Shown here in pieces: positions 3 through 48,319 of a DNA stretch of 64,000 bases. Positions within the stretch are counted from its first letter, which is position 1. The number at the start of each line of letters is the position of its first letter. A program made the position numbers and the translations under genes. Source of the DNA: a virus; the IMG/VR virus record IMGVR_UViG_3300031774_000005, positions 11,474 to 75,473 of that record. One strand, given 5' to 3'. Under the pieces are notes generated by a model. That model was not told the DNA's origin. It saw only the letters and a list, made by a program, of their open reading frames with translations, and made no database searches.

Positions 3-2036
3 GAAGAACTTAAGAAAAAAGAATACGGAGATTGTATTTTAGATGGAGAGTTAATTCTTTTTGATGGTGATGATGCACTACATAGAGCAGATACTATTGC
101 TCATGTTTTCAAAGGCAAATACAAAGACGCTAAATTAAAGTGTCATGTGTTTGATATTATTCGACATGAATCCCAAACATTAACAGATGAAGATTTAGAA
201 GATAGAATGACTATTTTATTCAATAATTATTCAGCAAAGTCTAATCAAGCAATTGCTTATCCTTCTAAAAAAGATACAAGACAGGCTGATAGTCTAAAAG
301 ATGTTGAAAAGTATGCGAAAGAAATGATGGATATTCCCACTTCCGAAGGAGTTGTTATTAAAGATGCAACTTCAACATATTATATTGGAACTAAAAAGAA
401 CCCTAAATGGATTAAATGGAAGAAGTTTGTTGATTTAGATGTAATTGTTTTAGATAAGAAAAAGACGAAAAGCAATCTTTATTCATATACTGTGGGCGTT
501 GGGCCAATTCCGGAAGATATGGAAGGACAAGAAATTGATGGTAAAAAGTATCTTAGTGTTGGTAAAGCATTGAATACTAAAGTAGCCGTTAATGTTGGAG
601 ATATTGTTAGAGTCAAAGTTGATGAAGTTAAGAAAAAAGGAGATGGGTTTAGTTTATTTTCAGCAAAGGTAATTGAAATACCGGAAGTCGAACACCCCGA
701 TAAATTAGTCACTCTTGAACTTCTATCACAAGATACCAAAAAATCACTTAACTATAATGTAGAAGCATTAACAAAGGGAATCAAAATAACTGATTATATA
801 CATGGTGAAACAAATGTAATCATGAAATCGGATATGAATGGCTTTGTAATCTATGGTTTTGAAGAAGATAATCTAATGTCTAAGAATGCTTTGGCAGATT
901 TGGATATGTGGAAAGCCCAAGCAGAAGAAATAATGAAAACTAAAGCAAGTCAATTAACGGTTGCTATTTTTCAGTATCTAAAAACAATGGGAGACAAGAC
1001 AGTAAATGATGTTCATGACTTTTTGAAGGACAAACACAAAGATATTTATGAAGATGTATTAGAATCTAAAAAGACTAAATTGAAAGATTGGTCGGATAAT
1101 AGAGACGGTATTTCATTCAAAGATAAGAAACTTCATGCTGATGATGATAAAATTATGCAAGAAGAAGAAATTATGAAATCACTTTTAATTAAAAATCAAA
1201 GACAAGAATTAATCCAAAGAATAAAACAGGAACAGGAACAGGAACAAGGACAAGGACAAATCGCTATTGAAGCAGATATGTCGGGTGATTGTTGCACTCA
1301 ATTAAAACATAAAATTATTGAAAATAGAAAACGCCAACTTGAATATTTAATGGGAAATAAATCTTGGGAAGAACTGAAAAATAACCCCCAATACAATTTA
1401 TCATCTTTTGATAATTATAATTCTTTAGAAGAAACGATGGATTGGTATTCTAATTTTATAATGAATCGGGATTGTGAATGGTTAGCGACGGAATTTATTA
1501 GTGAAAAGAATAAAGAAGAGTGGAAGAGTGTAGAAGAATATAATGAATGTTTATATGGTGAAGGATTTTCCGATAAATACGCTATGTTAAAAGAATACAA
1601 AACCCCAAAAGAAAATAGAAAGGGTTTGTTTAAAATATATTCAAGAGAAGATGATAATATAACATTAGGTATTAAACTTGAAGATGAAAGTTTATTTTGG
1701 ACTATTGACTTAGATAACCAAGAAGAAATGTTTGATTTGTTTGGTGCGGCAGGAAAATATCCGGCAGAAGTGGCTAAAAATGTCGAAAGAGGAAAGGTAG
1801 TTGATGCAGGAGATATTGAGTTAGGTGTCCAAAAAGAAGGTTATCATGAATACTTCTTGAAAGGTAATAAATTTGAAACTAAGATGCATTTTAGAGTAAT
1901 CAAGGTTGAAGGAAAAGAAATGTGGCTTGCATGGACAGGATATAAACAAGAACCTGCTGATACAGAAGGCGATAAAGGTTTATGGAATATATATGAAGAT
2001 AAATACAGTAAATTGTCAATTCCGGCTAAAAATTAG
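3..2036 (+). CDS. ATP-dependent DNA ligase-domain protein (5' truncated by the window edge), with a C-terminal LigD phosphoesterase-like domain; lies in the head module
   Basis: Frame is open from nt 3 (EELKKKEYGDCILDGELILF). Ligase motifs III ILDGE, IIIa HVFDII, IV EGVVIK and V WIKWKK, then an OB fold. C-terminus DAGDIELG..HEYFLKGNKF..WLAW resembles the LigD PE domain. Confidence 0.8.
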   Translation, partial: EELKKKEYGDCILDGELILFDGDDALHRADTIAHVFKGKYKDAKLKCHVFDIIRHESQTLTDEDLEDRMTILFNNYSAKSNQAIAYPSKKDTRQADSLKDVEKYAKEMMDIPTSEGVVIKDATSTYYIGTKKNPKWIKWKKFVDLDVIVLDKKKTKSNLYSYTVGVGPIPEDMEGQEIDGKKYLSVGKALNTKVAVNVGDIVRVKVDEVKKKGDGFSLFSAKVIEIPEVEHPDKLVTLELLSQDTKKSLNYNVEALTKGIKITDYIHGETNVIMKSDMNGFVIYGFEEDNLMSKNALADLDMWKAQAEEIMKTKASQLTVAIFQYLKTMGDKTVNDVHDFLKDKHKDIYEDVLESKKTKLKDWSDNRDGISFKDKKLHADDDKIMQEEEIMKSLLIKNQRQELIQRIKQEQEQEQGQGQIAIEADMSGDCCTQLKHKIIENRKRQLEYLMGNKSWEELKNNPQYNLSSFDNYNSLEETMDWYSNFIMNRDCEWLATEFISEKNKEEWKSVEEYNECLYGEGFSDKYAMLKEYKTPKENRKGLFKIYSREDDNITLGIKLEDESLFWTIDLDNQEEMFDLFGAAGKYPAEVAKNVERGKVVDAGDIELGVQKEGYHEYFLKGNKFETKMHFRVIKVEGKEMWLAWTGYKQEPADTEGDKGLWNIYEDKYSKLSIPAKN
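1228..1260 (+). repeat. Hexamer microsatellite (CAGGAA/CAAGGA)n encoding QEQEQEQGQGQ
   Basis: caggaacaggaacaggaacaaggacaaggacaa is directly visible. Confidence 0.8.
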
Positions 2037-2051: not shown

Positions 2052-2079
2052 TGGATAGTATAAGAAAGGGTTGAGAGGA

Positions 2080-3264
2080 ATGGTATCATCTGTAATGAAT
2101 AGAAGCAGACACGATTTCAGGATTCTTAAAGCACAAGACGATTTAATGATTGGAGGATATGCAAGCATCGAAATCGTTGATAAACAAAATGACTTAATCA
2201 CACTCAAAGCACTTAACGAAGCAGTTAAAAAATATATGGAGAACCCAAAGTTTAGAAATGTAATGACAAATCATTCTAATGTTCAAGTTGGAGAAGTAGT
2301 AAAATCATATAGAGACAAAGCAGGGAAGTTATGGAAAACCGAAGTTGATGATGTAGGATTCTTTGTAGTAATTAAGTTAAGAGACGATATAGAAAAAGCC
2401 AAAGAAATTAATAGAGGCATAAGAAAAGGTTCATTGAGGTCATTTAGTATTGGAGGACAGGCTTTAGAAAAAGTAAAGAAAAACCACCAAGAATTAGGAG
2501 ATTACAATGAAATTAGCAAACTTGAATTACATGAAGTAACAATATGTGAAAAAGGAATTAACCCCGAAGCAAGATTTGATATTTTAAAGCAAGAAAAAAA
2601 CACAAAAAAGGAAGTGAAAAATATGAGCAAAATAGAAAAAGCACTTGAAGAGTTAGATGCGCTAATGGCAGAAGTCAATACTCTACGCAAGGAAGAAGAA
2701 GAAGAAAAAACAGAACCTTTGACCGAAGAAATGGATAAAGGCGAATACATGGACACCACAGAAGAGGAAGATTTAGACACCGAAGCAAAAGCGGTTCTAA
2801 ATACTCTTGATGCTGGCGGAATAGAAATAGGCGAACCTGCTGATAGAGTTGTTATTAGCGGTGGAAAGCCTAAAGCATCTGATTTGCCCGTTGTTAAAGC
2901 ATTTGACAACAGCGAATTAGAAACTCTTGATTTGTCCGTTGGAAACATTGAGAAGGCTTACGAGGCTTTCCGTCAAGAACAACTTGAAAAGTTGGCTTAC
3001 GATAACCTCCAAAAGTCATTTGAAACAAGATTTAACCACGAAGTTTCTGCAAAAGAATCTATTTTGGCAAAATCTCAATATGATGCGGCAAGTGAAATTG
3101 CATCTCTAAAGGATGAATTTACCGCATTAAGAAAGTCTCTAACTGCTGAAAAGGAAACAATCCTAAAAGCACAAGAAGAGGCAACCGTTGAACTCCCATC
3201 TATGGATGAATTGGCCGAAATGGATTGGTCGGATATTCATAAAATGGTCGGAGGACTTAATTGA
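2080..3264 (+). CDS. HK97-type prohead protease fused to a coiled-coil scaffold
   Basis: IGGYAS..VDKQND, HSNVQVG (His), SFSIGG (Ser), LHEVTICEKGINPEARF; acidic coiled-coil C-terminal half; directly upstream of the MCP. ATG 2080 preferred over TTG 2071. Confidence 0.88.
   Translation: MVSSVMNRSRHDFRILKAQDDLMIGGYASIEIVDKQNDLITLKALNEAVKKYMENPKFRNVMTNHSNVQVGEVVKSYRDKAGKLWKTEVDDVGFFVVIKLRDDIEKAKEINRGIRKGSLRSFSIGGQALEKVKKNHQELGDYNEISKLELHEVTICEKGINPEARFDILKQEKNTKKEVKNMSKIEKALEELDALMAEVNTLRKEEEEEKTEPLTEEMDKGEYMDTTEEEDLDTEAKAVLNTLDAGGIEIGEPADRVVISGGKPKASDLPVVKAFDNSELETLDLSVGNIEKAYEAFRQEQLEKLAYDNLQKSFETRFNHEVSAKESILAKSQYDAASEIASLKDEFTALRKSLTAEKETILKAQEEATVELPSMDELAEMDWSDIHKMVGGLN
2623..3264 (+). CDS. 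Probable nested in-frame scaffolding protein
   Basis: Internal AAGGAAGTGAAAAATATG initiation signal just after the protease domain (MSKIEKALEELD...). Confidence 0.55.
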   Translation: MSKIEKALEELDALMAEVNTLRKEEEEEKTEPLTEEMDKGEYMDTTEEEDLDTEAKAVLNTLDAGGIEIGEPADRVVISGGKPKASDLPVVKAFDNSELETLDLSVGNIEKAYEAFRQEQLEKLAYDNLQKSFETRFNHEVSAKESILAKSQYDAASEIASLKDEFTALRKSLTAEKETILKAQEEATVELPSMDELAEMDWSDIHKMVGGLN

Positions 3265-3276
3265 AGGTGATTTATT

Positions 3277-4629
3277 ATGACAGGATATATTAATACAATA
3301 GCAGACTTAGAAGCACAAACCTATGGAACAGGCGCAACAGGCCATATTAGCAATCAATTGCTTAAGGCCGCAGGAACAGTAGCAGGTATTCATACTGCAC
3401 ACGATGGCTCGTTAAGCGCACCATCGGGCATTAACGCAAATCTTTACAACAAGATTTACGGCCAAAAAGTATGGTCTATGCTAAACCGAGAATGTAATGC
3501 ACTATCGGTTATTTCAAAAAGACCTTATTCATCAAGTGGTTGGAGAATTTTAAAGAAAAGACCTGCCGGTGGAGCAGGAAACCAATTAGATGTTTCTGCC
3601 GCTTCAAATACCGCATTAAGTGATGGATTATATGGTGCTGATGCACTTAGAGCAGACCGTCTTGGTGGTGTTCCGGAAAATGCAAGTCTTGATTCAAATA
3701 CAGATGGTTTGATTTCAATTGCACCGGAATATGATACACTATTTACAAGCCCTAAGATTATTGCACATCAATTCTCTTTCAGTGAATTGGCTATGGAAAT
3801 GGCTTCTATTGATGATGGAATTGGCGATATTAGAGCGCAACTAAGAGAAGATATGGGCAAGCATCACGCAGAAGTCCAAAACCAAATGCTTGTTATGCCT
3901 TTGGAAAACTATTCTCCAACAACTGCTTATGCTACCGCAAATGCCATTGATAGAGGATATACTTCTCTATTGAAGATTGTTTCTAACTCGGCTGAAATTA
4001 CCGAATTAGCGGATAACTCCGGTGGAAACCTTGTAGATGGTGCAACAGACCAAGCAATTGATACACTTTATGGAAAACTACGAAGTGCAGCAGGAAATGA
4101 ATATCTTGATTCCGAAGTTTCTTTCGGTGATGGCTACCTTTCAGCAGAAGCACGACAATTAACTCTAACTGTTCTAAACGATATGATTAGAAGACTAAGA
4201 GTTGCCGGTGGTTCTCCAAAGGTTATTCTAACAGGATATGATACTCTACAAACTATCTCGGACTTGCTACAAGCCCAAGAAAGATTCATGGATAGAAAGG
4301 AAATTGTTCCAACTGTTAATGGAGTAAGAGGCGTAAAGGGTCAAGAAGTCGGATTTAGAGTTTCAACTTACTACGACATACCAATGATTCCGGTTGCTGC
4401 TATGACTTCAACAGGAACAAACTCTTCTTTGATTAGTGATATGCTTTTCCTTGATACAGACCATTTGTGGCTATCTGTTATGAAACCAACTCAATACTTT
4501 GAAGATGGTATTTCAAACGGAAACCCATTCGGTGTCGGTTCTCTTGGAAACAAGGCTCTTTACCGAACAATGGGAGAAATGGGCTGTTCATACTTTAAGG
4601 GTCAAGGCAAAATTACAAACCTTCTGTGA
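3277..4629 (+). CDS. Major capsid protein (HK97 fold)
   Basis: 450 aa, follows the protease; GAAGGTGA RBS; features like archaeal tailed-virus MCPs (YGQKVWSMLN, PKVILTGYDT, FLDTDHL, QGKITNL). Confidence 0.85.
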   Translation: MTGYINTIADLEAQTYGTGATGHISNQLLKAAGTVAGIHTAHDGSLSAPSGINANLYNKIYGQKVWSMLNRECNALSVISKRPYSSSGWRILKKRPAGGAGNQLDVSAASNTALSDGLYGADALRADRLGGVPENASLDSNTDGLISIAPEYDTLFTSPKIIAHQFSFSELAMEMASIDDGIGDIRAQLREDMGKHHAEVQNQMLVMPLENYSPTTAYATANAIDRGYTSLLKIVSNSAEITELADNSGGNLVDGATDQAIDTLYGKLRSAAGNEYLDSEVSFGDGYLSAEARQLTLTVLNDMIRRLRVAGGSPKVILTGYDTLQTISDLLQAQERFMDRKEIVPTVNGVRGVKGQEVGFRVSTYYDIPMIPVAAMTSTGTNSSLISDMLFLDTDHLWLSVMKPTQYFEDGISNGNPFGVGSLGNKALYRTMGEMGCSYFKGQGKITNLL

Positions 4630-5307: not shown

Positions 5308-5364
5308 TAGACCCATAGCATTAATAGGGAAAGCCCCTGTTCATGGTTTGAAGGAGATAGAGAT

Positions 5365-5643
5365 ATGGCAAGTTGCAGAAGTAGCGGAGTATTGACCGGA
5401 AGCGCAGTAGTTTATTCCGGAAAGTGTAAATTGATTTCTATTCATGCTTGTGAGGTTGCAGGTTCAGCCGCAACTGTAAAAGTGTGGGATAATGCAAGTG
5501 CAGCAAGCGGTAAAGAATTAGCAAGGATTGTTTTATCCGCTAATCAAACAATTGAATTTGATATGCATGGAGTAATCTGTTCAAATGGATTATTCTTTGA
5601 AGAAGATGCAGGTTCAGTTGCAGTTTCTATTGAATTTGCTTGA
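5365..5643 (+). CDS. Small beta-rich putative virion protein
   Basis: GGAG RBS; jelly-roll-like composition. Confidence 0.55.
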   Translation: MASCRSSGVLTGSAVVYSGKCKLISIHACEVAGSAATVKVWDNASAASGKELARIVLSANQTIEFDMHGVICSNGLFFEEDAGSVAVSIEFA

Positions 5644-5652
5644 GGTTTTATT

Positions 5653-6036
5653 ATGCCAGCGTTAAGCCAAGATACCCGTTTAGTTATGACTATACTTTTT
5701 GTTGGAGCATTAAGTGGAACAAATGTTTGGGCGTATGCTCAATTCGGAACAGGATTTCCTTATGGAGCATTAGCACATTCGGTTTTATTTGGATTAGGAA
5801 CAATAGGTGCAATCATGGTTATGAAGGCCGTTTTTGATTTAGTCTTAAATGACAAGATAGAAATGTGGCTTCTTGATAGAAAGATAGCGGCCTTTTGGGA
5901 AAGAAAAGCAAGAGACGAGCAACAAAGAAACAAGATGCGTGAAAGCGCAAGACAATACAATACTAATCTTTATCAAGGTATTCAAGAAGAAGAAGAGAAT
6001 ACTGTTGGTAATGAGTTCTTAGCCGCATTACAATAG
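5653..6036 (+). CDS. Membrane protein (2 TM) with C-terminal coiled coil
   Basis: Hydrophobic LVMTILFVGALSG and SVLFGLGTIGAIMVM segments; charged helical tail. Confidence 0.7.
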   Translation: MPALSQDTRLVMTILFVGALSGTNVWAYAQFGTGFPYGALAHSVLFGLGTIGAIMVMKAVFDLVLNDKIEMWLLDRKIAAFWERKARDEQQRNKMRESARQYNTNLYQGIQEEEENTVGNEFLAALQ

Positions 6037-6047
6037 GCGGTGAAAGA

Positions 6048-6266
6048 ATGGTCTTTGGAGATTTAATGGGGTTCTCGGACTCCGATTATGCTTATAATCA
6101 AACAAGAGCGCATTCTGCCGATATTTTCTTTTTGAAAATGAGAGCATGGTTTTGGGGTTCTTGTGTAGGGCTATCCGCTTTTCTAATTGGAAACATAATG
6201 GGCGTATTTGATATTAATGTAATGGGTTGGATTATAGAAAAAGTATCGGGTTTATGGGGTCATTGA
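6048..6266 (+). CDS. Small single-pass membrane protein
   Basis: AWFWGSCVGLSAFLIGNIMGVF; GGCGGTGA RBS. Confidence 0.7.
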   Translation: MVFGDLMGFSDSDYAYNQTRAHSADIFFLKMRAWFWGSCVGLSAFLIGNIMGVFDINVMGWIIEKVSGLWGH

Positions 6267-6267
6267 T

Positions 6268-6936
6268 ATGTCATTAATGACAGGCTTTGCTATATTAGTT
6301 GGTGAAGCAGTTATTGGTTTTTGGAAGAAAGTCCACGCTATTAATTTTGGAGTGTATGGAGCAACAATGGTTGGTAAAACAACACTAAGTCACCAATTAA
6401 GAACAAGGGGAGAAGTTCCTCAAATTAATGAAAGAACAGTAGGACTACATAGAGCATCGAGAAAAAATGTAAAAATTGATGGTGATTCACATACAATAAA
6501 AAGTGCTGACATAGGAGGGGAAGCGATTTATTGGAAAGAATGGGTCAAAGATATGCAAAAGCGTAGAGTAAAATATATTATTTTTATGATAGACCATAGG
6601 CATTTAGATAATGAAGCAAATTTAGACCATCAAGTAGCATGGAAGTTTTTAGTTGATACCATTGTGTCGGATTTATGGCCAACAAATAGGAAAAAAAGAG
6701 AATCGGATTATCCTATGGCTATCGGAATATGGGCTAACAAATATGACATATGGGGAGAAAAATATCCATTAGAAGAAGGCCAAACCATAGACAAACATAA
6801 AATATTTGAACCTTTTAAGTATGGAATGAGGCAGTTGAACGACAAGGGAATACCTTGTTTCAAATATATAGTATCGGCAAAATCAGACCCCGAAATGGTA
6901 TATAGAGGCGTAATGACGATGATAAAGGATTATTGA
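6268..6936 (+). CDS. Ras-superfamily (Arf/Sar1-like) small GTPase
   Basis: G1 GATMVGKTT, G2 RTVG, G3 DIGGE, G4 NKYD, G5 SAK; hydrophobic N-terminal helix. Confidence 0.88.
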   Translation: MSLMTGFAILVGEAVIGFWKKVHAINFGVYGATMVGKTTLSHQLRTRGEVPQINERTVGLHRASRKNVKIDGDSHTIKSADIGGEAIYWKEWVKDMQKRRVKYIIFMIDHRHLDNEANLDHQVAWKFLVDTIVSDLWPTNRKKRESDYPMAIGIWANKYDIWGEKYPLEEGQTIDKHKIFEPFKYGMRQLNDKGIPCFKYIVSAKSDPEMVYRGVMTMIKDY

Positions 6937-6941
6937 TTATT

Positions 6942-7502
6942 ATGTGGTTTAATATCTTAAAAAGACAAACTAAATTATACAATTATGACCCAGATTTTTT
7001 AAATCCTTATGGCGAAGTGTCTCACTTTCATGGAAGCAGGGCATCAAAAGAAAAATTATTAGAAGAAGGATTAAAACCTCAAGGAAAATATATTAGTCAT
7101 CCTAAAGGATATACAAAAGAACATTATAGAGATTTAGTTAAACCCGATAATAAAAATAAAAAATCATTGATATGGGCGGCAGGAAAAGAACAAGGACTTC
7201 CCTTAGAATACGGAGAATCTAAAGAAAATGTCAAAGAAACAAAAGTTGATTATAATTCTTTATTTGATGAAAGGGGAATGCTATTACCAAATCCTAAAAT
7301 TCTTGAATCTAACAAAACTATAAGGACAGAAGGAAATATAGTAGGCATTAGAGGAAAGGATATTGATTGGAACAGAAGCGAGTCACCTATTTACAAAATA
7401 GGAACAAAATGGTATATCCATAATAAACCAATTGACCCAGATAGATTAGTATTTCTAACAATAGAACAATGGAAAAAATATTTAAACAAGAAAGGCGATT
7501 AA
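6942..7502 (+). CDS. ADP-ribosyltransferase-fold (Tpt1/KptA-like) protein with an MWFNILK N-terminus
   Basis: HFHGS..KEKLLEEGLKP (HG[ST]..GL.P motif) and terminal WYIHNKPIDPDRL. Confidence 0.55.
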   Translation: MWFNILKRQTKLYNYDPDFLNPYGEVSHFHGSRASKEKLLEEGLKPQGKYISHPKGYTKEHYRDLVKPDNKNKKSLIWAAGKEQGLPLEYGESKENVKETKVDYNSLFDERGMLLPNPKILESNKTIRTEGNIVGIRGKDIDWNRSESPIYKIGTKWYIHNKPIDPDRLVFLTIEQWKKYLNKKGD

Positions 7503-7503
7503 A

Positions 7504-8166
7504 ATGTATAACAACCAATTAATAGGACAAACCGCACCGCAACAATTTAACCCTGCACTAAATCCCTTACAACAAGCAAGGGCAAGTGGGGTTGTTCAAG
7601 AATATAAGTTTATAACTTTTAAACCAAAGAAGCAACAAAAGGAACTTATTAATGTTTTAAAAGCAGAACCTAAAAAATTTATAGGAATTAAATATGGTAA
7701 AAAATTTAATTTAAAAGATAGGTGCGTTGTTTGCGGGTATCATCATATTTGGGAACAAGGAGATTATATGCGACCACCTATTCCTTTAGATGGAGTAATT
7801 AAAGGAAGACCACTAAGAGGAACATATTGCCCTAAACACGCATCACATTATATGCAGTTAGAAATGCTACAACAACAGATACTTGCAGATAAACACGGAT
7901 TAGATTTTAAAGCGTTTAAACCTAAGATGCCAAAGATACTAAAAAGTGGCCCAATCAAAAGTTTAACAAGAGAAGATGTTTTGTCATTAACTAACGCAGG
8001 TTGGTTTATAACCCCGCCCGCTTTAGCAGATAACAAGACGGCTACTGATGAAGTAATACGATTAATCACAGAAATAAATATAATGACAGACAGAATGAAT
8101 CATTTGATGTTAAAATACGAAATTAAGGCAACTAACGAAGAACCAATAGAAAATAAGGAGGACTAA
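7504..8166 (+). CDS. Zn-binding protein (CxxC...CxxH) of the GTPase cluster
   Basis: CVVCGYHH ... YCPKH. Confidence 0.6.
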   Translation: MYNNQLIGQTAPQQFNPALNPLQQARASGVVQEYKFITFKPKKQQKELINVLKAEPKKFIGIKYGKKFNLKDRCVVCGYHHIWEQGDYMRPPIPLDGVIKGRPLRGTYCPKHASHYMQLEMLQQQILADKHGLDFKAFKPKMPKILKSGPIKSLTREDVLSLTNAGWFITPPALADNKTATDEVIRLITEINIMTDRMNHLMLKYEIKATNEEPIENKED

Positions 8167-8168
8167 TT

Positions 8169-8822
8169 ATGGGAATATTAGGAACAAGTAATGGAACAGT
8201 GATGAACGCAGTTCAAGCAACAAGCGACCAACAATTTAAGAATGTAAATAATTTACTTTCTTTACAAGATAATCATGTTGAGGAATTTTTTCAATATCAT
8301 GGTGAACAATTTTTATCGGCTCTTGAAAAACTAATGGAAGATGTAGTTCAACGAGTTGTTTCTCAAATGCTTAGTAAATTAGCATTTACATCTAACGGTG
8401 CTTCTATAACAATTAATGCTGATGCTATGAGAGAATTTGAAAAAATTACTCAAGAGAATATTGATTTGGATATTCAAAAGTTGCTAAATTCAGCAATTAA
8501 TACAGAAGTAGTTAATCAAAGAAAATTAGCCAAACAACAATATTTAGAATCTCAAGGATTTAGTGGCGGTGGACAAATGCAACAACCAAGCGCAGGTATG
8601 GCAGTAGCGGGATTAACAGGTAATACTCAACAATATCAACAAATGCAAGGTGCTATGAATAATGGAACAGGCTATCCTATTCCTCCTAATGGAACAGACG
8701 GATATGGTAGGCCATATTGGATTGATGCTCAAGGACAAATGAGTTATGAACCCCCACAAAGCGGTTTAGGATTAGGTTCAGCAATACAAAAAGGTGCGGC
8801 TTGGGCTAAATGGCTAATGTGA
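8169..8822 (+). CDS. Helical Q/G-rich protein with C-terminal amphipathic helix
   Basis: Low-complexity Q/G segment; ends GLGLGSAIQKGAAWAKWLM. Confidence 0.6.
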   Translation: MGILGTSNGTVMNAVQATSDQQFKNVNNLLSLQDNHVEEFFQYHGEQFLSALEKLMEDVVQRVVSQMLSKLAFTSNGASITINADAMREFEKITQENIDLDIQKLLNSAINTEVVNQRKLAKQQYLESQGFSGGGQMQQPSAGMAVAGLTGNTQQYQQMQGAMNNGTGYPIPPNGTDGYGRPYWIDAQGQMSYEPPQSGLGLGSAIQKGAAWAKWLM

Positions 8823-8835
8823 GGGGGAAATAAAT

Positions 8836-10545
8836 ATGGTCGCTTTTAGATGGGGTAATCAAAACTTATCCTTACCAAATTCCGCTAACTTTCTTAAGAC
8901 GGAAATGAATGATTTTCTTAGCACAGGGGATAGAAGTTTTGTGGTTAAATTTAAGCGAGCAAAAGAAAGTGTTCAAGGTAGCAATTTAAATGAACAAGAG
9001 TTTATGGGTGAATTTAAAAAAATTTATGAGGAAGTTTTACAACAACCTCTAAAACCACTTTTAGAAAATAAAGATGGTTGGAAACAATTTTCAAATATAA
9101 AGTCAGGTAAAAAGGGAACAATAACTAATCAAGCCAATATTGATTTTATTGACGACCAAAAAATAGAAAATCTTACTGATGCTAAAGTATTAACAAGATT
9201 AAAAGGTGCAGGTGCGCTTGAATTTGCTAAAGAAGGTAAAGTTGAATTACCACCATTTCCTTTTGAAGAAGCATTTCCTAAGAGTGAGTTCACGCTTGGA
9301 TATGGTCGGGATTTAGAAAAATTTATTGATGATGATGTTAGATTAAGAGTTAATTCACAAGGCGACGGTTGGAATTTAGCATACAAAAAAGAAAATGCAA
9401 GATTAGATGCACATATGCAAATAATTTTTCCTCCTATTGATGAAGGAAAAATAATGGCAGAAAAAGCCGATTATATTCTTGAAACAACAGGACAAAACGC
9501 TACTTTTAAATCGAAATCATCGCAGTTAAAGGTAGGAACTGAAATTATAGAGCATTCTTTTGATTTAACGGAAAAAGACCTAAAAAAGATAGGGGCTTTG
9601 TTTAAAGGAACACAATTAACACCAATGAAATTAGTTGATGATAAATTTGAAGTTGATGGGGAAAGACAACCAATTACTACCAAAATAGGTGGTGAAGGTT
9701 TAGAAAGTGAATTGGCTTTCTTAACTGCATTGAGCGATTTAGAAAGGACTCAAGAAATGTTAGATGAAGATATTGTTGTGTTAGGTGAACAATACTATTA
9801 CTATAAGCAACCAAGCGGAACATTGGATAATATAAATTTAGATTTACTTGATGAAGCAAAAGAATTTGTATTCGCAAATCAAGAACTACTCTTAAGAATA
9901 TTAAAGCCGTATCTTGATGAACCAACGGCAGTATATACAGGAAAAATACTTGCTAACATTAAAACAAAACAAAAGCCTAAAGATACTTTTAGAGCCACCG
10001 CATTATCAACACAAACAAAAGACGCAAAATACTCAAAAACAAGATATGCTGAAAATAAAGAAAATCCGGAAGAAAGAATAACACCGGAAAAATACAAAGC
10101 CCTTCCTATTGAAGAAAGAAAAAAATACAAATTAGTTTCTAAACCATTAACAGACGAAGAAATAATGGAATTAACAGAACAGGCATTTAAGCATAAAGAA
10201 ACCGGAGAAACTATTTCCGAATTAGGCTATCAAGCACTATCTAATGAAGATAAAAAGAATTACAAGACTAATCTTCAAGTTCTTGAAACAAAAGAAGGAG
10301 TTTCGGGGGCTAATATAAGAGGCATGGAAACTTACGGTGGCCAAGAATACAAATATGATTCAATTAATTCACACAACGCAGAAGAATTGTTTGCGAATGC
10401 CTTTGTTGAATGTCAAATATATGTAATCAACAATGGTGAATATAATTTGAATCCATTTAGAAGAGGGGCAGGTAATAGGGCTTTGTCTAAAGAAATTAAC
10501 AAACTAAAAAGAAATGTTAGAAGATTAAAGAAAATATTTGGGTGA
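8836..10545 (+). CDS. Hypothetical 569-aa protein in the morphogenesis operon
   Basis: GAGGGGG RBS; long ORF with two I-x3-Y-x-AL-x2-E-x-K-x-YK repeats. Confidence 0.65.
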   Translation: MVAFRWGNQNLSLPNSANFLKTEMNDFLSTGDRSFVVKFKRAKESVQGSNLNEQEFMGEFKKIYEEVLQQPLKPLLENKDGWKQFSNIKSGKKGTITNQANIDFIDDQKIENLTDAKVLTRLKGAGALEFAKEGKVELPPFPFEEAFPKSEFTLGYGRDLEKFIDDDVRLRVNSQGDGWNLAYKKENARLDAHMQIIFPPIDEGKIMAEKADYILETTGQNATFKSKSSQLKVGTEIIEHSFDLTEKDLKKIGALFKGTQLTPMKLVDDKFEVDGERQPITTKIGGEGLESELAFLTALSDLERTQEMLDEDIVVLGEQYYYYKQPSGTLDNINLDLLDEAKEFVFANQELLLRILKPYLDEPTAVYTGKILANIKTKQKPKDTFRATALSTQTKDAKYSKTRYAENKENPEERITPEKYKALPIEERKKYKLVSKPLTDEEIMELTEQAFKHKETGETISELGYQALSNEDKKNYKTNLQVLETKEGVSGANIRGMETYGGQEYKYDSINSHNAEELFANAFVECQIYVINNGEYNLNPFRRGAGNRALSKEINKLKRNVRRLKKIFG

Positions 10546-10550
10546 TAACG

Positions 10551-11855
10551 ATGGGAACAACCATATCGCCAAGCGACTTTACTGAAATAAACCCTGACTA
10601 TTCACAAGGCAGGGGATTTTATACTAATGCAACAGAAGTCGCTAACCTATTACAAATACCTGCTTTTACAAATAGCACTTATCCAACAGTTGCTCAAGTT
10701 GGAAATATAATAAAAAGAGTTGAAGGAATTATTGATGATAAAGTCAAGCGTTCCTTTAGACCAATTATTACTAAAGATGAATACCATAACTTTGAATTTT
10801 CAAGAAGGCCACATAAAACATATTTTGGTGGCCATGTTGGATTTGTTCAACTAAAACAAATGAAAGTTAGAAAAATAGTTTCCTTGTTAGTTTGGCAAGG
10901 AGGTTCATATGAAGAGTTAGCATCAGCGCAAGCAAAAATACATTTTCTTGAAAATTTTAGAGATTTAAATTCAATCATATTACAACTACCTAATAGCGGT
11001 GTATCTTTTGAGTTGTTATCGGAGAATGACATAACTGATTTAGCAAATAGTGAATTTTGTAATACATTTGGATTAAAAACCACTAATGATGAGATTACTG
11101 CACTAATCAATGAATCTTTCCCTTCTGCTACATCTTCTTTTACCGGAGCAACTGCGCCAAAGGCTCTAACCTCTTCTAATCTATCCATTTCCGACTTTTT
11201 CTATGCCTCAAAAGATAAGAATAATGGCAAGCAACTTCTCATTTCCTCCCTACTTTCCGGTGATGATGGGGCAGATTGTGTATTAAAAGCAACCATAAAA
11301 CAATCATGCACTACTGCTAACTCATCAACTGCTCTTACTGTTGCGGATTCATCTAAATTAGGTGTTGGTATGACTGTTAGCGGAACAGGCATTACAGGAA
11401 CAATTACTATTGCTTCAATTACAGATGGAACGCATGTTGTATTAAGTGCGCCAGCATCAGCAAGCGGAACAAATGTTCTTACTTTTACTGCAACAGATAC
11501 AATACCAACAGTTTGTAATCTTGTTGATTTTACAGACAAAGAAGATTTGAATAGGCTTGGTTCTTTTTGGACAATTGGTGAAGAAGGCCGAATATTCTTT
11601 TTCAACGATTACCCATTCCATGCTAATAATTCTGTAATAGTTTCTTATGTTGCAGGTGATGGTAGAGTTCCTTCTGCTATACATGAAGCCGCTACAAAAT
11701 TAGTTTCGGCTGAAATAATAAGGCACGACGACCAAAGCATATTAATTGCAGAAACAGGAGCAAATATTTCTACTAAAGAAAAGTATGATATACTCCGAAA
11801 AGAGGGAATGGATATTCTAAAGGGTAAAGGCGACCTTGTATATTTCTTGGATTGA
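10551..11855 (+). CDS. Head-tail adaptor (gp6/gp15-like) with inserted beta domains
   Basis: N-terminal VANLLQ..IKRVEGIID and C-terminal VSYVAG..VPSAIHEAATKLVS are typical of adaptors; GGTGA RBS before ATG 10551. Confidence 0.65.
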   Translation: MGTTISPSDFTEINPDYSQGRGFYTNATEVANLLQIPAFTNSTYPTVAQVGNIIKRVEGIIDDKVKRSFRPIITKDEYHNFEFSRRPHKTYFGGHVGFVQLKQMKVRKIVSLLVWQGGSYEELASAQAKIHFLENFRDLNSIILQLPNSGVSFELLSENDITDLANSEFCNTFGLKTTNDEITALINESFPSATSSFTGATAPKALTSSNLSISDFFYASKDKNNGKQLLISSLLSGDDGADCVLKATIKQSCTTANSSTALTVADSSKLGVGMTVSGTGITGTITIASITDGTHVVLSAPASASGTNVLTFTATDTIPTVCNLVDFTDKEDLNRLGSFWTIGEEGRIFFFNDYPFHANNSVIVSYVAGDGRVPSAIHEAATKLVSAEIIRHDDQSILIAETGANISTKEKYDILRKEGMDILKGKGDLVYFLD

Positions 11856-11860
11856 TTAAC

Positions 11861-12076
11861 ATGGCAGTTGAAATAAATGTTAAAAAACTCCATGAGTTAT
11901 ATGAAATAGAAAAGGAAAGACAACTTGCTATGAAAGAATTGTCCGAACAATTAGGTTATGATATTTCATTCAGCGATAATGAAGTAATGCAAAACGCCAT
12001 ACAGTCATATAATAAATATATTAACAAAACAATAGAACAGGAGGTATTATCATTGATGAAGTCTCTCTTCTTATAG
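11861..12076 (+). CDS. Hypothetical protein
   Basis: Tightly packed ORF. Confidence 0.55.
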   Translation: MAVEINVKKLHELYEIEKERQLAMKELSEQLGYDISFSDNEVMQNAIQSYNKYINKTIEQEVLSLMKSLFL

Positions 12077-12567
12077 ACCTATTATCAACTCAATGGTCGT
12101 CTAATGCTACGGCGTTAGTAAGTGCAGGAACAATTGGTGTTTCTCATGCTATTACTCCGGATTTTATTGATATTAGAACAATGTCGGCTAATAAAGGAGT
12201 TAGAGTTGATTTAAGCAGAACTCCTGCAACAATTGTTGTGTTTGAAGATTCACAAAATATTGAATATCCAACTGTGACTTATGATATTAGAAATGAATCA
12301 TATACATTTACTTTACATATTAGAGTTTTACATGATGAAAGAGCAGGATTAGATGCTTCTTATGGCAAAGATAGGCTAAGGGCTATATACTTGATACTTC
12401 GTAGAGTGCTTGAAAGCAAGAGGCACGGTTATACTTCAAGTGACGGTTCTAAATTTCAACAATTATTTTTAGGTGCAAGAAGTGAAAGTAATGACCGAGC
12501 AAAACGGCTTTTCGGATATAAGATTACATTAGAAGCAAAAAGATATGCATTAAACATTCCCTCGTAA
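12052..12567 (+). CDS. Putative tail terminator/completion protein, probably with an ATT start
   Basis: Frame open from 12025; GGAGGT at 12040-12045 lies 6 nt before ATT-GAT-GAA (MDEVSLLIDLL...); directly upstream of the tail tube gene. Confidence 0.55.
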   Translation: MDEVSLLIDLLSTQWSSNATALVSAGTIGVSHAITPDFIDIRTMSANKGVRVDLSRTPATIVVFEDSQNIEYPTVTYDIRNESYTFTLHIRVLHDERAGLDASYGKDRLRAIYLILRRVLESKRHGYTSSDGSKFQQLFLGARSESNDRAKRLFGYKITLEAKRYALNIPS

Positions 12568-12593
12568 GTTAGTAAGGAAAGGGGAGCGATAAT

Positions 12594-14198
12594 ATGGTAA
12601 ATAACGAAATTTTTTTAGGAAGCGGCTCAAGCACAACACTCATACCCGAACAGGATATTTATATTCCTCTTGACGGAACGGGTGGTGGAGTATCAACAGT
12701 CACAGTCACACCGGATAATGCTTTTGATGCGGTTTTTAAATTTGTTCCTAATATTTACATTGGTTGTAATATTGATATTTATACTGCCGCTAATGCTCTA
12801 ATTTCAAGCCATACTGTTGCTTCAAATGCAGTAGATACCATTACTCTCTCAAGTAATGTTGGTTCGGGAACTCCTGCTTATGCACTATTAAGAGCATATG
12901 GTTCTCCTTCACCACACCCCGAAGTTGGCGGCAGACAATGTTTATTGGCTGATAATTACTTAGGATTGATGGAATCAGTCACATTTCCTAATTTAAGCCA
13001 AGAATTGAAACAAATGAATCTTGGTCTTGGTGGAACAAGAAACTTTACTTTCCAATACAAAGGAATTAGAACTGCTGATAATGGCTCTCTTGCTTTAGTC
13101 GCAAATACAGGTGCTTGGCTTTATTACGCTTTTGGGGCTATGGATGCTATTACTTTTACCAGAAAAACACATCTAACAGTCACTTATCCTGCCGATACTG
13201 CGCCTCCAACCGGAACTGCTGATGCCATTTATATTGAAGGAACAAATGTTGGAAATGACGGAACTGCAATAGTCACGGAAACAGGCCCACACTTTTATAG
13301 AACAGTAAAAGGCGGAACAACTCTTGTTCCTCCTGTTGATTTTACAGTTTTTCCTACATCAAATGCAAATAATCAAACCGTAGATTTTGATACAGATGGA
13401 AGGCCGAAAAACATTACTTATACAATTAAAGAACTTAATAGCGACCAATTGCCTTCATTTAGCCTTGAACAATCAATGGCTAAAGACCCTGCAAGTTTGA
13501 CTACAAACGCAAATATTGGTGCAAGTCCAAACCCTCTTGATGAATCTAATAACTTTGTTAGAATCGCAAGAGGTTGCCGTGTTAATTCATTAACTATTGA
13601 AGCATCCGAAGGTGAAGAATTAAAAATGAATATGGATATTAATGCAAGAGTAGTTGATAGTATTAGTGATTTATATGCTTCTGCCTCTTTACAAACAGAT
13701 TATGTTTCAAGAGCAGGTCAAACAGATAATGCTAATTTGTTTAACTTTAATGCAGGAACAAACCATGCTTCACCATTCTTTTTCTCTCAAGGAACATTTA
13801 GCGCATTTGGCCAACAATTTTTGAAAGTTAATTCAGTAAGTATTGCTATCAATAACAACTTGATGGATAAAAGATACATGGGCGGTCATAGAGATATGAA
13901 AGAGGGTATTCCTGCACAACGCTCATATGAAATTACTTTTGAAGCAGTTGTGACTGACGATTTACTATTCAAAGAAATGCTTAATGAAACAGAAAACACA
14001 AGTGCAAATCGTGTGAGTTTTACTTTCACAAAGCCCGATACAAGCGAAAGTATAAATTTAGTATTCAAAGATTATTTCCTTGACACAACAGAAATTACTA
14101 TTCCTGACGATAAAGGGCCAATTAGTTTTAGCGCAACAATTAAGCCAAGAAATCTACATTCTTGTTCGATTATAACTGATTATGTCCTCATGGGGTGA
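12594..14198 (+). CDS. Major tail (tube) protein, siphovirus-like
   Basis: LPSFSLEQ, GCRVNSLTI, PFFFSQG, VSIAINNNL, RSYEITF pattern; followed by chaperones and TMP; no sheath gene seen. Confidence 0.75.
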   Translation: MVNNEIFLGSGSSTTLIPEQDIYIPLDGTGGGVSTVTVTPDNAFDAVFKFVPNIYIGCNIDIYTAANALISSHTVASNAVDTITLSSNVGSGTPAYALLRAYGSPSPHPEVGGRQCLLADNYLGLMESVTFPNLSQELKQMNLGLGGTRNFTFQYKGIRTADNGSLALVANTGAWLYYAFGAMDAITFTRKTHLTVTYPADTAPPTGTADAIYIEGTNVGNDGTAIVTETGPHFYRTVKGGTTLVPPVDFTVFPTSNANNQTVDFDTDGRPKNITYTIKELNSDQLPSFSLEQSMAKDPASLTTNANIGASPNPLDESNNFVRIARGCRVNSLTIEASEGEELKMNMDINARVVDSISDLYASASLQTDYVSRAGQTDNANLFNFNAGTNHASPFFFSQGTFSAFGQQFLKVNSVSIAINNNLMDKRYMGGHRDMKEGIPAQRSYEITFEAVVTDDLLFKEMLNETENTSANRVSFTFTKPDTSESINLVFKDYFLDTTEITIPDDKGPISFSATIKPRNLHSCSIITDYVLMG

Positions 14199-46401: not shown

Positions 46402-46787
46402 TCCTCTTCCATTGGTTCTAACGCCTGTTGTAATACTGCTTTAATTAAGCCAATATCATCATTTCCATTCTCTATAAAATTAAGAGCAGTTAGTATGATG
46501 TGCTTATGTCTTTGGTCGTCAAGAGCGTATTTATCATTCTCAAGCATACCTAAAGTTTGAGCAATCTTCTTTTTGGCATCTTTTCTTTGATAGTTTGTTT
46601 CGCCTTGTTGATGTAAAAGAATAAATCTTCTTTGATATAAACCAAGAAGATGAACATATTGAGTTCTTATTCTTCTCATGATATTCCTAATTTCACGATT
46701 AGTTTGGTTCATTGATAAATCACTTATCTTTATACTTCTACCAAATATATCTGTCATGTATTTAGTATTCCATGATGCACCTTTCAT
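46398..46787 (-). CDS. Hypothetical protein
   Basis: Coupled ORF. Confidence 0.5.
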   Translation of the reverse strand: MKGASWNTKYMTDIFGRSIKISDLSMNQTNREIRNIMRRIRTQYVHLLGLYQRRFILLHQQGETNYQRKDAKKKIAQTLGMLENDKYALDDQRHKHIILTALNFIENGNDDIGLIKAVLQQALEPMEEE

Positions 46788-48319
46788 TCTAATCTCTCCA
46801 CATCTTCTAAGGTATTAATATCCGCAACAAACTTATCATCTCTAATTCTAACACATCTTGGGAATCTTAAGCCTAAGTTGTCCTTTTCATCTCTTGAAAC
46901 TAAATCAGCCTTAACTTCTAAAACTACAACAGGTGAAACAAAGAACTGCCCATTCTCAAATTTCTCAACATTTCTTCTTAGCGTATTTGTTAGTGTGATT
47001 AAATCCTCATCGGAAAAACCACTACCACACCAACCAACGCTTTGATAACCATTGTCGGACTTTACTCCTAATTCAAATGTGCCGAATACATTTGCTCTTT
47101 TACCTTCTCCATACTTAGTAGATAATATAACTACATCAAGATTAATTTGTGGTGGTTTGTATTTAGCCCAACCAACACTTCTTTTCCCTGCTTCATAAGC
47201 CATTGAAGAATCTTTGACGATAATACCTTCAAAACCATCATTAATTGCTTGATGATAAAAAGCCATAATATCGCCTTCTGTTATTCGGTGCGCTTGATTC
47301 GGTAAATCTTTCATCTTCTCAAGCCTTTCATTGTATGGTAAATCCATAATAGTTTCATCGTTTAGCATAAGACAATCAAAGATAACCCATTCAACCTTTA
47401 CCTTTTCTGCCGCTTCTAAATGATTCTTAGAATGAACTCTTGTAGCCATTAGTTTATGTGGTGCAGGTGTTCCATCATCTTTTATTGGATATATTTCACC
47501 ATCAAGTATTGCGTTCTTAATATCATACTTTGCACATAATAAAACAATATCGGGGAATTGAACTGTTACCAATTTACCCTTACGATTAAAAATCATTACC
47601 TTGCCATCTTCAATATGAATTTGATACCTATTACCATCATACTTGTAATCAACAACAAAGTTAGTTGGCCACTTATTCATAGGCACTTCTTTTGCTAACA
47701 TAGGTGCTACAAACTTTCCGTGTGTTAAATTACATGGAGGTTCTATTCCTCTTTCATAGGCAGAACAAACTACTTCAATAGAATTAAAGTTCAAGTGTTT
47801 CTTAACCTCTTTAACTTTCTTCTTGTAGTAATGAGCCATAATTTTCGTGACTGTTCCTCTATTGATACCGTTTCTTGGTGTTCTTAGAAGATACCTAATG
47901 AACCATCTTCGGCCATTAGCAGACATACCGACTAAAGCCGTTTCTACATTTGTAAAAACATCGGAATCAATTTTACCACAATTAAATTCCAATATTAGTT
48001 TAGCACTTAGTAAAGGCATACCGTCTTTTATTTCTGTTTCTGCTGAAACATCAAGATAATATATCGCATCTCCTAAATCATTATGAGCCGCTAACAGTCC
48101 ATCTATTTCACTTTCAAATACATCAAATATCTTCGCTAACCATTTCTTAGCCTTTGCTAAACCTAAGTTATTAGCAGTAAGGTTATCTTTATCTAAAATA
48201 GATAATACTAATCCTTTATTTTCAAAATTCTCAAGAGCGTTTCCTATCATTTTTATCTGTTGCGTTGGTGTTAGAGTATCGCTCGCTTCTAATAACCTTG
48301 CCATTCGTTCCCATGTCAT
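46784..48319 (-). CDS. lig: ATP-dependent DNA ligase
   Basis: KYDG, ILDGE, IFDCL, EGIIVK, WAKYK, LRFPR. Confidence 0.95.
   Translation of the reverse strand: MTWERMARLLEASDTLTPTQQIKMIGNALENFENKGLVLSILDKDNLTANNLGLAKAKKWLAKIFDVFESEIDGLLAAHNDLGDAIYYLDVSAETEIKDGMPLLSAKLILEFNCGKIDSDVFTNVETALVGMSANGRRWFIRYLLRTPRNGINRGTVTKIMAHYYKKKVKEVKKHLNFNSIEVVCSAYERGIEPPCNLTHGKFVAPMLAKEVPMNKWPTNFVVDYKYDGNRYQIHIEDGKVMIFNRKGKLVTVQFPDIVLLCAKYDIKNAILDGEIYPIKDDGTPAPHKLMATRVHSKNHLEAAEKVKVEWVIFDCLMLNDETIMDLPYNERLEKMKDLPNQAHRITEGDIMAFYHQAINDGFEGIIVKDSSMAYEAGKRSVGWAKYKPPQINLDVVILSTKYGEGKRANVFGTFELGVKSDNGYQSVGWCGSGFSDEDLITLTNTLRRNVEKFENGQFFVSPVVVLEVKADLVSRDEKDNLGLRFPRCVRIRDDKFVADINTLEDVERLE

Follow-up and report, generated by a model that had tools for sequence, protein, structure and literature searches.

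An Arf-like small GTPase encoded in a conserved magrovirus gene cassette with membrane proteins, and its possible role in membrane remodeling or egress

The 64 kb of viral DNA analyzed here (the window) correspond to positions 11474-75473 of a 75.5-kb virus record (IMG/VR IMGVR_UViG_3300031774_000005; G000 below) and encode the hallmark gene set of magroviruses, which are tailed viruses of Marine Group II/Poseidoniales archaea. On the plus strand, between three small open reading frames (ORFs) that follow the capsid gene and a 569-amino-acid (aa) ORF that begins at 8836, lie six ORFs separated by gaps of 1-13 nt. Five of these form the gene cassette that is the subject of this study. The first two were recognized from their reading frames and hydropathy and encode membrane proteins: TM2 (5653..6036, 127 aa) and the smaller TM1 (6048..6266, 72 aa). 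The third gene (6268..6936) encodes a divergent Arf-like small GTPase of 222 aa, which was identified by its motifs, profile matches and fold model. Farther downstream are the genes for a 220-aa Cys/His-motif protein (7504..8166), defined by alignment across virus groups, and for a 217-aa Gln/Gly-rich protein (8169..8822), defined by cross-group profile comparison. The remaining ORF, which encodes 186 aa from an ATG at 6942 (6942..7502), is an accessory gene outside the conserved cassette. A first-pass annotation of the sequence had listed the five cassette genes and overlooked the accessory ORF; the tight packing and the 2-transmembrane (2-TM) and 1-TM proteins that it placed upstream of the GTPase are borne out by gap lengths and hydropathy.

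The GTPase carries a complete set of G motifs in order: G1 GATMVGKT (residues 31-38), G2 T57, G3 DIGGE (81-85), G4 NKYD (157-160) and G5 SAK (203-205). These motifs are invariant in 16 of 16 relatives, down to 71% identity, and they are kept across the wider family. Five ordered motifs on a Rossmann-like G domain, together with structural matches to small GTPases at Z > 16, place the protein in the Ras superfamily (TRAFAC class). Furthermore, Trp92, located eleven residues past Asp81, is kept in at least 90% of 33 family members, and we take this spacing from the G3 Asp to be a signature of Arf, Sar and G-alpha proteins. The switch-I Thr is directly preceded by Arg in most magrovirus groups (ERT here, residues 55-57).

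Two additional features are hallmarks of the family, namely a hydrophobic or amphipathic N-terminal stretch and a polybasic insert. In the structural model, the hydrophobic N-terminal helix spans residues 2-22 and includes an invariant Glu13. Residues 1-19 reach transmembrane-level hydropathy (1.63 on the Kyte-Doolittle scale, with 1.6 as the threshold for a hydrophobic segment) in the viruses most closely related to the window (group 1, defined below), and the N terminus is amphipathic in two more distant groups (groups 2 and 3; hydrophobic moment, muH, 0.28-0.43). The insert lies at about residues 139-146 (TNRKKRES here), between helix 3 and strand 5, where it is present in all groups and corresponds to a gap in Arl3.

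When the GTPase alone was compared with Pfam, the matches were all below threshold (MMR_HSR1 at E 0.0024, Roc, SRPRB and Ras). No match to the Arf model (PF00025, threshold 22.3 bits) was found at E <= 1, and the SR-beta model (PF09439) gave 13.9 bits (E 0.035), which does not reach its threshold of 25 bits. The NCBIfam model TIGR00231 (small_GTP) was matched at E 0.0015. Distant members of the family provide a bridge to Arf proteins: P0165 (57 bits), P0184 (39.5), P0193 (32) and P0159 (27) pass the Pfam Arf cut-off, and all four are connected with the window protein in profile searches (E 1e-9 to 1e-4). Some distant members also reach E 8e-05 against the SR-beta model. A profile of the wider family matched Arl3 (E 6.8e-11) and 8oun (E 1.1e-10) in the PDB over full-length alignments, and its Ras matches were restricted to the N-terminal half. 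Entry 8oun was placed in the Asgard ArfR deposit series via its neighbors 8oum and 8ouk.

Structural comparison points in the same direction. An AlphaFold2 model built from a diverse alignment (predicted local distance difference test, pLDDT, 91.5; predicted template modeling score, pTM, 0.87) replaced an unusable model from a shallow alignment of close relatives (pLDDT 58.5), and it represents a single conformation without nucleotide. Foldseek returned small GTPases exclusively, with the top template modeling scores (TM-scores) for Arf6 (0.81), Arl1 and Arl3. The same three proteins were the best matches by VIA-align (Z 18.4-18.8, root-mean-square deviation 2.4-2.5 Å over ~162 residues), headed by Arf6 2a5f (Z 18.8, 2.4 Å, 162 residues). 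Down to rank 48 (Z 18.8-17.0), nearly all matches are Arf or Arl proteins in the GTP form or Asgard ArfR proteins, interspersed with a few G-alpha proteins and one Asgard RagA-like protein; the first Rab appears at rank 49 (Z 16.9). Because Z values span no more than about 2 units in total, no single one of these criteria decides the Arf assignment, which is based on the agreement among profile searches, the Pfam bridge and the fold ranking. Taken together, these data identify the window GTPase as a genuine, very divergent and fast-evolving member of the Arf-like small-GTPase branch, as the first-pass annotation had proposed from the complete G1-G5 set, the DIGGE motif and the N-terminal hydrophobic helix.

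The likeness to the Arf family (Arf1, Arf6, Arl1, Arl3, Arl6, Arl8, Sar1 and the Asgard ArfR structures 8OUM, 8OUK and 8OUN) comprises the fold (Z 18.8-17.2, ~2.5 Å over ~162 residues), the membrane-type N-terminal helix, DxGG followed by Trp at +11, NKxD and SAK, and the model resembles the GTP-bound forms. However, there are also clear differences. The viral protein scores below the Pfam Arf cut-off, and its residue 2 is Ser rather than Gly, so that it has no myristoylation site (we know of no myristoylation in archaea). Glu replaces Gln or His at the catalytic position in group 1, the polybasic insert is extra, and the region past G4 is longer. In addition, the gene belongs to a tailed virus whose host is a non-Asgard archaeon, and no known guanine nucleotide exchange factor (GEF), GTPase-activating protein (GAP) or coat partner is encoded nearby. 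SR-beta, which has the weak Pfam score given above, is likewise an Arf-like GTPase held by an N-terminal hydrophobic membrane segment, but the cassette has no SR-alpha-like partner, and the N termini in groups 2 and 3 are amphipathic rather than transmembrane.

Among viral proteins, the best matches in a viral-structure library were GTPases of giant viruses (mimivirus Rab and the Ras/Rab/Ran-like proteins of pithovirus and klosneuvirus; Foldseek E 2.6e-09 and weaker), and the match list contained no prokaryotic tailed virus. These giant-virus proteins derive from eukaryotic Rab, Ras or Ran genes that viruses of eukaryotes have recently captured. Their identity to the magrovirus protein is 11-20%, at TM-scores of 0.4-0.6, which is below the values for Arf structures.

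When 1.84 billion representative proteins were searched exhaustively with HMMER, 78 family members were identified at E <= 0.001. They include full-length relatives (18-35% identity), every one of which starts with hydrophobic or amphipathic sequence. A scan of 185,579 prokaryote species genomes (one each), based on peptide patterns that distant relatives would escape, matched two contigs, both in one ‘Maricaulis sp.’ metagenome-assembled genome. Both contigs (L168 and L169; NZMJ01000024.1 and NZMJ01000101.1) are magrovirus sequences, and they are likely mis-binned because one equals IMG/VR 2788500287_000048 (L005) in length and range. The distant relatives come from short contigs, except for P0198 (573-kb contig), and none of P0132, P0138, P0165, P0181, P0185 and P0193 was confirmed in viral or metagenome contig collections. 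A tblastn search of a phage record collection yielded no match. The GTPase shares 76% identity with ‘hypothetical protein gp088’ of Poseidoniales virus YSH_150918, and its automatic name in some IMG records is ‘GTPase SAR1 family protein’. Within the reach of these sequence searches, the GTPase family looks virus-only.

The two proteins encoded upstream of the GTPase have the character of membrane proteins, and their counterparts in groups 2 and 3 contain hydrophobic segments as well. TM2 has hydrophobic segments at residues ~10-28 (about 1.5, just below threshold) and 38-66 (1.87), followed by a charged, helical or coiled-coil C-terminal tail of ~65 aa. TM1 has one hydrophobic segment (38-63, 1.66), a short amphipathic end and an acidic N-terminal part with a conserved YNQTRAHSAD. 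The same scan detected no hydrophobic segment in the Cys/His, Gln/Gly-rich or accessory-ORF proteins. A holin-like architecture fits the products of 5653-6036 and 6048-6266, which are without a family match.

The Cys/His protein carries the motif CVVCG ... TYCPKH (C74-x2-C77 ... G101-R102 ... T107-Y-C109-P-x-H112). Among 28 sequences from the three groups, C74, G78, G101, R102, T107, Y108, C109 and P110 are invariant, C77 occurs in group 1 only, and H112 is lost in group 3. The first-pass annotation had called this a Zn-binding protein. The Cys/His motif is indeed present here, and a zinc site is plausible for this protein, yet such a site lies outside the conserved core and is not a general feature, because C74 and C109 are the only invariant Cys residues and the His is lost in one group. 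The Gln/Gly-rich protein has a conserved helical core with ITQENID, then a low-complexity Q/G/M region, and finally the Gly-rich, amphipathic C-terminal end that had been noted before and that proves to be conserved (GLGLGSAIQKGAAWAKWLM); C-terminal motifs of the G-x-G-S-x-[IV]-x-[RK]-G type occur in all three groups.

The four partner proteins and the accessory ORF have no significant family in Pfam, PHROG or NCBIfam scans, and none of the partners' sub-significant PHROG or NCBIfam matches names a lysis or Arv function. For the Cys/His and Gln/Gly-rich proteins, profile searches of the PDB gave nothing, or E 0.29, and the ESM Atlas gave scores of 0.82-0.84 with no family and no structure.

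Conservation of the cassette was first assessed in group 1, which consists of 80 IMG/VR loci whose GTPases are 83-99% identical to that of the window. Each of the five genes was found in 73-80 of the 80 loci (TM2 and TM1 in 79 each), and the median gaps between successive genes are 11, 1, 11 and 3 nt, with a single nucleotide separating the TM1 stop from the GTPase start. Median identities are 83.5% for TM2, 78% for TM1, 88.5% for the GTPase, 75.5% for the Cys/His protein and 81% for the Gln/Gly-rich protein, compared to 75% for the major capsid protein (MCP) and 77% for the prohead protease. The GTPase is the most highly conserved of 16 neighboring genes across the 80 loci and is under strong purifying selection.

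Group 2 comprises 80 loci found with P0133, and its GTPases are 30-34% identical to that of the window. These viruses are magroviruses as well, with complete genomes of 103-118 kb, a thermosome gene and an MCP that is ~43% identical. Their gene order is a 2-TM coiled-coil protein, a 1-TM protein, the GTPase, the Cys/His protein, a Q-rich protein and an extra small membrane protein, each of which is present in 78-80 loci. Group 3 (L164-L167) has the same five genes. Although the GTPases of the three groups share just 30-36% identity, hhalign relates them with probabilities of 99.9% (group 1 versus 2), 99.8% (1 versus 3) and 99.9% (2 versus 3). The corresponding values are 94% (E 1.2e-7), 90% and 99.8% for the Cys/His proteins and 63%, 95% (E 3.7e-8) and 91% for the Gln/Gly-rich proteins. 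Judged by these profile comparisons, the GTPase, the Cys/His protein and the Gln/Gly-rich protein are homologous across the three groups. The 2-TM proteins of groups 2 and 3 are also related (98%, E 2e-13), whereas those of group 1 show no significant likeness to either (E about 0.007), and the 1-TM proteins show none in any pair of groups. The equivalence of the group 1 membrane genes to those of groups 2 and 3 is drawn from position and architecture only.

The location of the cassette differs among the groups. In complete group 2 genomes, it lies 21-23 kb upstream of the MCP gene and ~8 kb upstream of a TerL homologue, and in group 3 it follows the thermosome gene at a short distance. Thus, the earlier description of the block as located between capsid and adaptor genes holds for group 1 but not for groups 2 and 3. 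Because the same gene order recurs at a different genome place in each group, the block moves as a unit. It is therefore a virus-specific, autonomous magrovirus module, in which the GTPase gene has two membrane genes upstream and the Cys/His and Gln/Gly-rich genes downstream. Whether related viruses retain the cluster had been singled out beforehand as a point that could overturn the first-pass proposal, and three magrovirus groups that are deeply divergent all retain the cassette.

These findings bear on one alternative, a soluble housekeeping-type GTPase associated with ribosomes or chaperones, whose neighbors are unrelated and whose gene order is accidental. The best direct Pfam match would suit such a protein, since MMR_HSR1 is described as a ‘50S ribosome-binding GTPase’, although the match is below cut-off. 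However, the gene order is maintained in three genome contexts despite the divergence of the GTPases, the family is marked by its hydrophobic N-terminal helix and its polybasic insert, and the fold and profile matches favor Arf over Era/Obg-type proteins. We regard this explanation as highly improbable.

In group 2, the cassette is flanked by intergenic gaps of ~120 and 224 nt, and the upstream gap contains a conserved element (...GGGTGAATCAA) at that place in 33 loci. This element, which carries RGGTGAATSAW, is likely a promoter or operator, and the group 2 cassette looks like its own transcription unit. The ~120-nt gap (about 7090-7220 in L084; also in L086-L118) is conserved and reads GATTCTC[AG]ATAATATC, which is followed by AT-rich inverted repeats and then by AAAGGGTGAATCAA, about 30-60 nt ahead of the start codon. 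Exact copies of RGGTGAATSAW are found at the gap in the 33 group 2 loci, and in 8 loci the motif recurs ~3.4 kb past the GTPase start. It is absent from this window and genome. Directly upstream of the group 2 cassette is the gene for a 2,351-aa protein (L084 28-7083), which is found in 31 loci at ~27% identity and has no Pfam or PHROG match.

Additional genes are inserted next to the GTPase gene in group 1. A tblastn search of the 80 close loci gave no match to the accessory ORF at 6942-7502, which belongs to no Pfam family and is an insertion specific to this genome among the loci compared. Insertions occur at the junction between the 1-TM and GTPase genes in 11 of 79 loci and at the junction between the GTPase and Cys/His genes in 13 of 76 loci. 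The inserted ORFs represent at least eight mutually unrelated families, and nearly all of their products start with MW-x-x-[IV]LK (MWFNILK here). Two listed exceptions are doubtful, namely an internal alternative frame and an ORF that overlaps the position of the 2-TM gene. Tagged inserted ORFs include 6942-7502 in the window, L002 5445-5996, L030 6675-7133, L055 5056-5691 and 5706-5999, L071 3814-4317 and 4994-5533, and L077 5459-5995 and 6660-7235, in addition to others. The sites on either side of the GTPase gene are hot spots for the insertion of tagged genes. The tag looks like a common leader on a variable set of cargo proteins and might possibly serve in capsid targeting or protease cleavage. 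The variants MGWFSILK and MNWLSILK are found on two ORFs beside the TerL and portal genes (G000 3322-3714 and 7147-7539; L170).

Another alternative is that the small membrane proteins and their partners are virion-borne entry proteins, which would be packaged, ejected and assembled into a channel through the host envelope at infection, like the ejection proteins of T7 or P22. The inserted ORFs carry the W-x2-ILK tag as a possible capsid-targeting leader, the block lies among head genes in this genome, and its small hydrophobic and Gly-rich proteins recall ejection proteins by textbook analogy. However, none of the five cassette proteins (0/5) is tagged, which argues mildly against their being packaged in the same way. 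A GTPase would also require cytoplasmic GTP, the block and the head genes lie well apart in groups 2 and 3, and the cassette is more highly conserved than MCP. Consequently, we consider a function in entry to be quite unlikely.

The insertions on both flanks are also relevant to host takeover or exclusion, in which the anchored GTPase would mimic or jam targeting of the type mediated by the signal recognition particle receptor, cell division or vesicle formation, or would block superinfection. A virus-only, fast-evolving family is what would be expected of a host-interaction gene, and the weak, sub-threshold SR-beta match (stronger for distant members) is a further point in favor. In contrast, a median identity of 88.5%, as seen for the GTPase, would be unusual in an arms-race gene, early action does not fit the co-transcription of the block with late structural genes in group 1, and the SR-beta score of the window protein is far under the cut-off. 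This explanation is unlikely in our view, but it ranks above an ejected channel.

In the window genome, the cassette lies in a plus-strand morphogenesis block, in agreement with the first-pass annotation. The TerL and portal genes are directly upstream of the window, and they are followed by head and tail genes that include the prohead protease (2071-3264), the SU10-type MCP (3277-4629), the tail tube (12594-14198) and a tape-measure-like ORF. The cassette therefore sits amid head-to-tail genes, with MCP on one side and neck genes and the tail tube on the other. The minus strand encodes a family-B DNA polymerase, an ATP-dependent ligase, a thermosome-type chaperonin and a ribonucleotide reductase. 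The complete ligase gene is located at 46784-48319, and a second, ligase-like gene adjoins the prohead protease gene upstream (window 3-2036; G000 10585-13509, 974 aa). In the window part of this second gene, matches to NCBIfam ligase models are confined to residues 3-167 and score far below the cut-offs.

There is no intergenic room at either end of the cassette in this genome. Given that no space for a promoter is available, the cassette must be read through from the head genes, and we infer from its position that it is expressed late. Public RNA-seq collections offered short contigs alone, with shares of 0.05-0.19, which cover parts of the protease and MCP genes, 5324-6012 and 7847-7997. 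Most of these runs are merely guessed to be RNA and have neither depth nor timing, and they were not used as evidence of expression.

The location among virion genes could also indicate a membrane-bound assembly platform, to which procapsid assembly, packaging or a replication and assembly compartment would be tethered without opening of the membrane. The group 2 block lies just upstream of packaging genes and the group 3 block near the viral thermosome gene, and Arf-type switches classically recruit soluble machinery to membranes, as textbooks describe. Moreover, the low-complexity Q/G-rich protein could be a scaffold. On the other hand, head assembly in tailed viruses is not known to require membranes, no link to portal, scaffold or terminase proteins is detectable, and the block moves between groups independently of the head genes. 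Thus, although this is the first of the alternatives in our ranking, we consider it somewhat unlikely.

The nearest functional analogy is the ArvA-ArvB-ArvC vesiculation operon of Haloferax volcanii and other Euryarchaeota (PMC10927574). ArvA has a hydrophobic N-terminal helix and is nearest to Arf by profile methods and to MMR_HSR1 in Pfam (PMC10927574). In each system, a small GTPase from the archaeal world would share its operon with a Zn-ribbon-type protein and one more small protein, and ArvA acts on membranes. The viral block differs in having two membrane genes upstream of the GTPase gene. No partner protein or inserted ORF matches DUF2073 (ArvB) or DUF2072 (ArvC) in Pfam at E <= 1, and because the partners have no detectable likeness to ArvB or ArvC, we treat the parallel as an analogy only. 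Our family search apparently did not recover the ArvA family, given that it returned 78 proteins whereas 1,666 ArvA homologues have been reported (PMC10927574).

We favor the interpretation that the cassette encodes a late, GTP-switched device for membrane remodeling or egress, with a probability of about 0.4. Egress or breaching of the membrane is ranked first because the block is late and because no other release function was found among the scanned ORFs (no holin or endolysin was seen in the ~30 window ORFs scanned). In addition, small proteins with one or two transmembrane segments and charged tails have a membrane-perforating architecture, and a GTPase is a natural timer. Phage holin/antiholin cassettes likewise consist of small late proteins that have charged tails and one or two membrane-spanning segments, and the lambda lysis genes are located upstream of the terminase region, as is the group 2 block (a textbook analogy). 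However, the cassette shows no sequence likeness to holin systems and has no endolysin, and holin systems lack a GTPase.

According to this egress interpretation, the GTPase would be made late in infection and would dock on the cytoplasmic face of the membrane via its N-terminal helix and conserved polybasic loop, adjacent to the two small membrane proteins or bound to them. There it might act as a GTP-dependent switch or timer, with the Cys/His and Gln/Gly-rich proteins perhaps serving as a regulator and as an effector or scaffold. The output would be local remodeling or breaching of the membrane that releases finished virions. More specifically, the cassette may be the release machinery of tailed archaeal viruses, with an Arf-like GTPase that is anchored together with two small membrane proteins and that times and drives the opening or budding of the host membrane, and we advance this narrower proposal only tentatively.

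Several observations weigh against a GTP-switched egress device. No part of the cassette resembles a known holin, endolysin, pyramid-forming protein, ESCRT component or coat protein. The catalytic position after DxGG is variable, being occupied by Glu here, Gln in group 2 and His in group 3. The hhalign probabilities between the group 1 membrane proteins and those of groups 2 and 3 (0.4-6%) are not significant and do not establish homology. The available RNA data are too fragmentary to show the timing or level of expression. Finally, a position within the virion gene block also fits a structural or packaged role.

Arf-type GTPases are master switches of eukaryotic membrane traffic. Outside of eukaryotes, they have been discussed mainly for Asgard archaea and, functionally, for the haloarchaeal ArvA (PMC10927574). 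The searchable literature on magroviruses, Poseidoniales viruses and archaeal tailed viruses contains no paper that links these viruses with the GTPase block, and the nearest reports concern Asgard archaea whose putative mobile elements carry Arf-like genes (PMC11529989) and giant viruses with Rab/Ras genes. Also new here are the insertion hot spots for tagged genes beside the GTPase gene and the third group of loci that bridges the other two.

The cassette thus represents a conserved Arf-like switch, apparently confined to viruses, that is encoded beside membrane proteins in viruses of a non-Asgard archaeon. To our knowledge, the route by which tailed archaeal viruses exit their hosts has not been described, and the cassette is a concrete candidate for archaeal virus egress or membrane control. 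It may also offer a minimal five-protein system for Arf-like switching without eukaryotic GEFs, GAPs or coats, and the GTPase gene, which is conserved better than the capsid protein, could serve as a marker for tracking magroviruses. In the surface ocean, magroviruses are among the most abundant viruses (PMC5434244, PMC11706807). If the egress interpretation is true, some of these viruses would use a GTPase-controlled form of egress that has no bacteriophage counterpart.

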